Shown here: positions 45,778-46,289 of the stretch, in pieces
Position numbering within the stretch: the first letter of the stretch is position 1
How the letters are laid out: each line of letters starts with the position of its first letter
Origin: Escherichia coli
GTDB lineage: Bacteria > Pseudomonadota > Gammaproteobacteria > Enterobacterales > Enterobacteriaceae
Assembly (NCBI RefSeq): GCF_003991155.1
Contig: NZ_CP031293.1
DNA: 64,000 nucleotides
Reading direction: 5' to 3' (one strand)
Translations under genes and position numbers: made by a program
Notes under the pieces: model-generated
The model's database searches: none
The model's input: only the letters and a program-made list of their open reading frames with translations
Told to the model about the DNA's origin: nothing

Positions 45778-45822
45778 AGGGCAAAGCGGAAACGGATAAG
45801 ACGGGGATAAATGAAGAAGAAA

Positions 45823-45867
45823 TGGCGCGCCCTGCAGGATTCGAACCTGCGGCCCACGACTTAGAAG
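45823..45867 (-). pseudogene. pauD: 3' fragment of tRNA-Arg (argU-like): prophage attR core, pauD equivalent
   Basis: Reverse complement matches, from memory, the anticodon loop through the 3' CCA end of argU; the 5' half of the tRNA is absent. Confidence 0.75.
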
Positions 45868-46289
45868 TTCCTAGAACGACATTTTAAGTCAACAACTTAC
45901 CGCGCCATCTCTGCGCTCACACGTCCCACTACCTCAAAACATGTAAAGCCTTGCAAGCCATTGTGAGGCCTTATGTGTCTCAGTTTTGTCCCTCTTTTTT
46001 GTACCAAAAAACATAGCAATTGAGGATAAACCTCATGCTATTTTCGCTTATATGCCTCTAAAGGCATGGCGCTTAAATAGATAAAAACACCACAAAAGCA
46101 TAAAAAACCACACAGTAAAACCGCAACATAAAACAATAACAGATAATTAAACCAAAAACAGATAGCGCATTGTGATAATCATTCAATACTAAACAAAATA
46201 TAAACAGTGGAGCAATATGTAATTGACTCATTAAGTTAGATATAAAAAATACATATTCAATCATTAAAACGATTGAATGGAGAACTTTT

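Follow-up and report, generated by a model that had tools for sequence, protein, structure and literature searches.

Why is ompT, the gene of an outer-membrane protease, found in some strains of Escherichia coli and missing from others? The question is raised in concrete form by a 64,000-nucleotide (nt) stretch of E. coli DNA (contig NZ_CP031293.1 of assembly GCF_003991155.1; hereafter the window), in which the space between the stop of envY (45777) and the start of ompT (46290) holds a fragment of argU, a transfer RNA (tRNA) gene. Comparison of this sequence with other genomes indicates that the fragment is almost certainly attR, one of the two attachment (att) sites bounding a prophage, here a lambda-like element of the DLP12 type inserted in argU, and that ompT and the genes next to it were brought in as phage cargo. 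This explains the presence of ompT in some strains and its absence from others, the gene being carried by a phage whose target is argU. In protein production OmpT is a nuisance protease. It is also used as a marker of extraintestinal virulence (PMC2947995). For the window itself, the att repeat provides an exact coordinate for prophage annotation.

Much of the analysis draws on a near-identical genome, that of E. coli LWY24 (NZ_CP054556.1, 1622041-1686040), which shows one difference in 64,000 bases (window position 25739, G here and A in LWY24, inside ybdK, 24666-25784). Its RefSeq annotation, together with Pfam, supplied the identities of envY and ompT, and coordinates of the LWY24 locus (L001) are converted to those of the window by adding 42959. 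At least 15 further complete genomes are 100% identical across window positions 45700-64000.

The argU fragment and its intact counterpart

The 45-mer TGGCGCGCCCTGCAGGATTCGAACCTGCGGCCCACGACTTAGAAG is present as a single copy in the window, at 45823-45867, and its reverse complement agrees at 45 of 45 positions with the 3'-terminal 45 nt of argU, which encodes tRNA-Arg(UCU). The reference genes were those of K-12 MG1655 and LWY24, which are identical. This bears out the initial annotation. ARAGORN found no complete tRNA gene in the 64,000-nt window, and the site is thus a fragment of argU and not a gene. Measured against the intact argU copy, the direct repeat is 47 bp long (45821-45867, minus strand) and takes in two bases beyond the CCA end. 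The fragment and the intact gene have the same orientation, and it is the 3' portion of argU that the far end retains. In the orientation of the window argU is on the minus strand with its 3' end towards envY, so that the lower-coordinate side is expected to be chromosomal and the higher-coordinate side to be phage DNA.

Could such a match be a chance similarity, or what is left of a duplicated tRNA gene that decayed without any phage being involved? An Rfam scan of 45600-46500 did return a tRNA match on the minus strand (45834-45917) that reaches past the fragment, being made up of the argU piece and about 50 nt of the phage arm, with a score of 24.8 bits, below the gathering threshold of 29, and the GenBank record of phage Turner names an 84-nt 'tRNA-Pro' at the same place (L006 2103-2186). 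The remaining evidence is difficult to reconcile with this explanation, whose probability we consider negligible and which we regard as refuted. No match was obtained in 100 dinucleotide-preserving shuffles, with up to three mismatches tolerated; alignment with the intact argU locus breaks off abruptly on either side of the 47 bp, identity ending at the very point of argU where DLP12 begins in the RefSeq annotation of K-12, and the flanks align sporadically only; ARAGORN sees no tRNA at the site or in the att regions of the phages; and folding is no better than in shuffles (z = -0.46). A functional tRNA-like element was also tried as a candidate and rejected, the Rfam bits coming from the T-arm of argU, ARAGORN returning nothing and the z value just given being that of 45823-45917 on the minus strand. 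The 'tRNA-Pro' label in Turner is probably an annotation artefact of the same T-arm.

The far end of the prophage is known from LWY24 and not from the window. In that genome an intact argU and an intact intD lie 50,060 bp from the fragment, core to core, and are followed by fimZ, which places attL and the integrase gene about 32 kb past the window end. IntD is a 387-residue tyrosine integrase (Pfam Phage_integrase, E = 1.2e-46) whose gene ends 16 bp before argU. A matching attL beside an intact argU, with an integrase, had been anticipated elsewhere in the genome and does exist, as decided in this near-identical strain. The boundary that had been drawn at 45823-45867 is likewise sound. Its description as the right one fails in the window, where it is the left edge of the prophage, and is valid only for the K-12 map and lambda naming; the name attR is correct by convention because this is the end distal to the integrase.

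Empty sites, phage junctions and the origin of ompT

Both partners of the presumed integration event were reconstructed in silico. The chromosomal one, attB (1,200 bp), joins window positions 45268-45867 to the remaining part of argU and the fimZ side of LWY24, and was counted as present where a single unbroken match took in 80% or more of it. Among 5,426 complete E. coli genomes, this envY-argU-fimZ join is unbroken in 2,499, many of them at 100% identity. The locus in strain HB42 is illustrative, as it reads nfrA-ybcH-envY-argU-fimZ, with no ompT there and with the protein accessions and envY-argU spacer of LWY24 unchanged. The phage partner, attP (1,247 bp), consists of the intD 3' end followed by the core and by window positions 45868-46467. 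The Escherichia phages 2G7b, ev243, Turner and Kati contain this intD-core-ompT join without a break, with identities of 98.6-99.8%. Records of the P22/SfV type, from Shigella phages SfI, SfII, SfIV and SfV and Salmonella phages BIS08P22 and SEN22, match the int region at 74-80%. A literature search on phages 2G7b and ev243 and on Nesevirus returned nothing relevant.

The closest comparison is with 2G7b (Nesevirus nv2G7b, 47,142 bp), in which the order is tail fibre, methyltransferase, tail-fibre-assembly scraps, alpha/beta hydrolase, OmpT, attP and integrase. Window positions 45821-50608 are 99.73% identical to this phage, for the tail genes (51300-64000) the figure is 93-98%, and the ompT and integrase genes of 2G7b are each 99.8% identical at the nucleotide level to those of the prophage, the integrase gene being read in LWY24. 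Homology starts at 45821, the outermost base of the core (45821-45867, the argU match and direct repeat of the attL core), and homology with empty sites extends up to 45867 and on into argU. The spacer between the envY stop and the core (45778-45820) is chromosomal, lying within the attB join; it is 100% identical in empty-site genomes and has the same length in HB42. On the other side, the phage arm of attR and then the upstream region of ompT (45868-46289, plus strand) are 99.7% identical to the interval between int and ompT in 2G7b. An AT-rich segment of about 400 bp had been reported here, in line with the 422 bp measured, whose G+C content is 34.4% (29.3% for 46000-46289). A promoter and terminator scan of this intergenic region yielded, as a promoter for ompT, one weak sigma-70-like site (46223-46250), which is no more than expected from shuffles. 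The 10-mer ACGACATTTT occurs once per att arm, at -84 and +55 from the core start (window 45876-45885; L002 3838-3847), and could be an arm-type binding site for the integrase; about 0.6 such occurrences would be expected by chance according to our own estimate, and a 9-mer search for arm-type repeats in the reconstructed attP gave this motif alone, at about chance level.

The cargo begins with ompT itself (46290-47243, plus strand), which encodes a full-length member of the omptin family of outer-membrane proteases (Pfam Omptin PF01278, E = 3.7e-130, profile positions 1-283 of 283) and is 97.9% identical at the nucleotide level to the K-12 gene. It is followed on the same strand by the gene for a 494-residue alpha/beta hydrolase (47430-48914; Pfam Abhydrolase_1 and Abhydrolase_4) and, further on, by that for a class I S-adenosylmethionine (SAM)-dependent methyltransferase of the YbcY type (49453-50121, plus strand; Pfam Methyltransf_12, _23, _25 and _11), whose region is 97% identical to the tfaX/ybcY/tfaD region of K-12. 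Between the last two lie tail-fibre-assembly and DinI gene scraps (49098-49378, converted from pseudogenes called in LWY24 by the Prokaryotic Genome Annotation Pipeline, PGAP), which we read as recombination scars. All three genes are carried by deposited phage genomes and are absent at empty sites, in agreement with the earlier proposal that they were acquired with the phage.

It might be objected that an earlier integration, unrelated to this prophage, left the argU fragment behind as its scar, and that the three cargo genes make up an islet of their own between this scar and the present prophage, or entered the resident prophage in place. The composition of the cargo lends itself to this idea, with a G+C content of 41.9% compared with 56.7% for the structural (tail) genes of the phage and with tail-fibre-assembly and DinI scraps interspersed. 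The slot next to ompT (window 47248-49173, for which K-12 has no match, compared with L003 19062-20680 in K-12) is moreover variable, being occupied by the hydrolase here and in 2G7b, by the AraC-type gene appY in K-12 and by neither in Nissle 1917; the scraps border this slot. Set against this is the finding that the integrase gene, the core of 47 bp and all three cargo genes are contiguous in 45-48 kb phage genomes, where they are 99.7% identical to the window, that phage homology starts precisely at the outer edge of the core, and that the whole segment is missing from empty-site strains. The contiguity of the module in phages and the existence of empty sites imply that the mosaicism belongs to the earlier history of the phage lineage and not to a separate element in this chromosome, so that an older scar with a separate islet is largely refuted and, in our estimation, very improbable. 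Since its G+C content differs from that of the structural genes, scraps flank it and its contents vary between lineages, the cargo is best read as an add-on gained by the phage lineage, and not as ancestral backbone, that has been carried along with the phage ever since.

The att arm plus ompT (window 45868-47243) was found in 2,731 of the 5,426 genomes (at least 80% coverage), which together with the 2,499 empty sites makes 5,230; the two figures would fit mutual exclusivity as totals, not as a genome-by-genome pairing. In Nissle 1917, the element has shrunk to about 3.5 kb and comprises ompT, a methyltransferase gene, a tail-fibre-assembly remnant and an integrase remnant, followed by argU, which shows that an old insertion has decayed there but kept ompT.

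Campbell-type integration by a tyrosine integrase is an established mechanism. The duplicated repeat, the two prophage junctions, the empty site and the attP junction of phages are all there to be read in deposited genomes, and a corresponding course of events can be outlined. The attP site, flanked by the integrase gene on one side and the cargo region on the other, holds the 47 bp of the argU 3' end in a copy of its own, and IntD would recombine it with the matching 47 bp of the chromosomal argU, IntD being the presumed catalyst and strand exchange presumably taking place somewhere within the 47 bp. Integration would rebuild an intact argU beside intD (attL, about 50 kb to the right and outside the window), and the second 47-bp copy would stay beside envY as attR. 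Everything from 45868 rightwards is phage DNA, namely the att arm and ompT upstream region, the cargo module and the tail genes. In lambda, a non-essential b region lies between the tail-fibre genes and the att site, and the cargo module occupies the equivalent place.

Several observations weigh against such a straightforward account. The attL site and the integrase gene are outside the window and were deduced from a near-identical genome. There is no sharp change in G+C content at the core. The comparison of the two sides proposed in the initial annotation is thus a weak test, a clear drop being seen only in the ompT upstream region; the compositional boundary is blurred because envY, although outside the prophage, is AT-rich as well (45.9% G+C). 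The different composition of cargo and backbone means that the cargo joined the phage lineage secondarily. Finally, the LWY24 prophage bears an IS3 insertion, which clouds its present ability to excise. This last point bears on a further idea, that the 50-kb prophage is an inducible phage of the Nesevirus type and not a dead remnant like DLP12; identical cores, an intact IntD and phage-identical arms would allow excision, and we consider this possible but rather doubtful. If true, ompT, the hydrolase and the methyltransferase would be moving among E. coli strains today by lysogenic conversion. More remote still is the notion that the tRNA-like hybrid at the att site, the 'tRNA-Pro' of Turner, might be an expressed RNA.

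Comparison with DLP12, Nesevirus and lambda

That ompT lies inside DLP12 is already annotated in the RefSeq record of K-12 and published for E. coli; the finding is thus correct and already known, and the current understanding, as stated by the K-12 reference annotation and by publications, is unchanged. In K-12 MG1655 the 'cryptic prophage DLP12' is annotated at 564755..586056, an interval that opens on the initial base of the 45-nt repeat in argU and closes immediately before its second copy. The latter, at 586057-586101, lies between ompT and envY, and the boundary is therefore the same as here. Among published accounts, one has appY within DLP12, integrated into argU (PMC10057817), and a 47-bp attR was described in a 2019 paper; the published accounts all cite Lindsey and colleagues, from 1989. 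What is added here is modest, namely a full-length (50 kb) and nearly phage-identical copy in this lineage, and the presence of the whole three-gene cargo on deposited phage genomes.

The prophage in LWY24 and DLP12 share the argU integration site, the attR repeat (45 nt in argU plus two bases) and the integrase, IntD being 99.7% identical in nucleotide and 99.5% in amino acid sequence between LWY24 and K-12. They also share ompT beside attR, a ybcY-type methyltransferase gene, tail-fibre-assembly scraps and, by gene name, nohD, rzpD, rusA, ybcN, ybcO, ninE, emrE and ren. The main difference is one of completeness, as DLP12, at about 21 kb, is a remnant that lacks the head and tail genes, whereas the LWY24 copy spans 50 kb with a full annotated set of head, tail, lysis and replication genes. 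In addition, K-12 has appY beside ompT where the alpha/beta hydrolase is found here. The location of ompT directly inside attR is common to K-12 and Nissle 1917, and the order in 2G7b is equivalent.

The phages 2G7b, ev243, Turner and Kati share with the prophage the int-attP-ompT-hydrolase-methyltransferase module (99.7%), the tail genes (93-98%) and a lambda-like gene order. They differ in having been deposited as 45-48 kb phage genomes and not as integrated copies; the LWY24 prophage has IS3 and a segment with emrE and a recombinase remnant that set it apart from them, and the tail fibre region differs in parts. Lambda itself, with its attP and attB sites interpreted by the Campbell model, offers the parallel of a tyrosine integrase gene beside attP, an identical core at both prophage ends and cargo between the tail fibres and att, with the difference that integration here takes place at the argU 3' end.

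Genes flanking the boundary

On the chromosomal side, the genes to the left of the fragment are core genes (ent/fep, cus, nfrBA, ybcH and envY). The last of these (45016-45777, plus strand) encodes an AraC-family regulator according to the RefSeq annotation of LWY24 and a Pfam HTH_AraC match, and it adjoins argU in HB42, as it should if it is outside the prophage. In Nissle 1917, envY is nearly gone, with its last 40 nt or so left, and the attR copy is degenerate (L005 8765-9000). The gene may possibly be accessory DNA as well.

On the phage side, the late region occupies the minus strand from 50176 to the end of the window at 64000 and runs past it. According to the LWY24 annotation it comprises a tail-fibre-assembly remnant, the tail fibres, lom, J, tail tip and assembly genes, the tape measure gene and the genes for gpT and gpG. 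The whole prophage can be followed in LWY24, where the order from attR is ompT, the hydrolase and the methyltransferase, with the tail-fibre-assembly and DinI scraps among them, then the tail fibre genes, lom, J, other tail genes, head genes and terminase, then iss/bor, lysis genes, Q, rusA and ninE, and lastly the IS3 insertion, emrE, ren, the replication genes P and O, the repressor region, gam/bet/exo and intD. Three of these features, all past the window end, are the serum-survival lipoprotein gene iss/bor (L001 31467-31760), IS3 (L001 40066-41294) and emrE (L001 42443-42775); IS3 sits between a zinc-ribbon pseudogene and a ybcK-like recombinase pseudogene.

A tail fibre gene that is a single open reading frame for 792 residues in the window (51613-53991, minus strand), as it is in 2G7b, is divided by PGAP into three features in LWY24. 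It contains a 189-bp tandem repeat at 53014-53444 (2.3 copies, 85% matches) with nested periods of 42 and 21 bp, in a region with a strong AT skew between the strands, down to -0.64.
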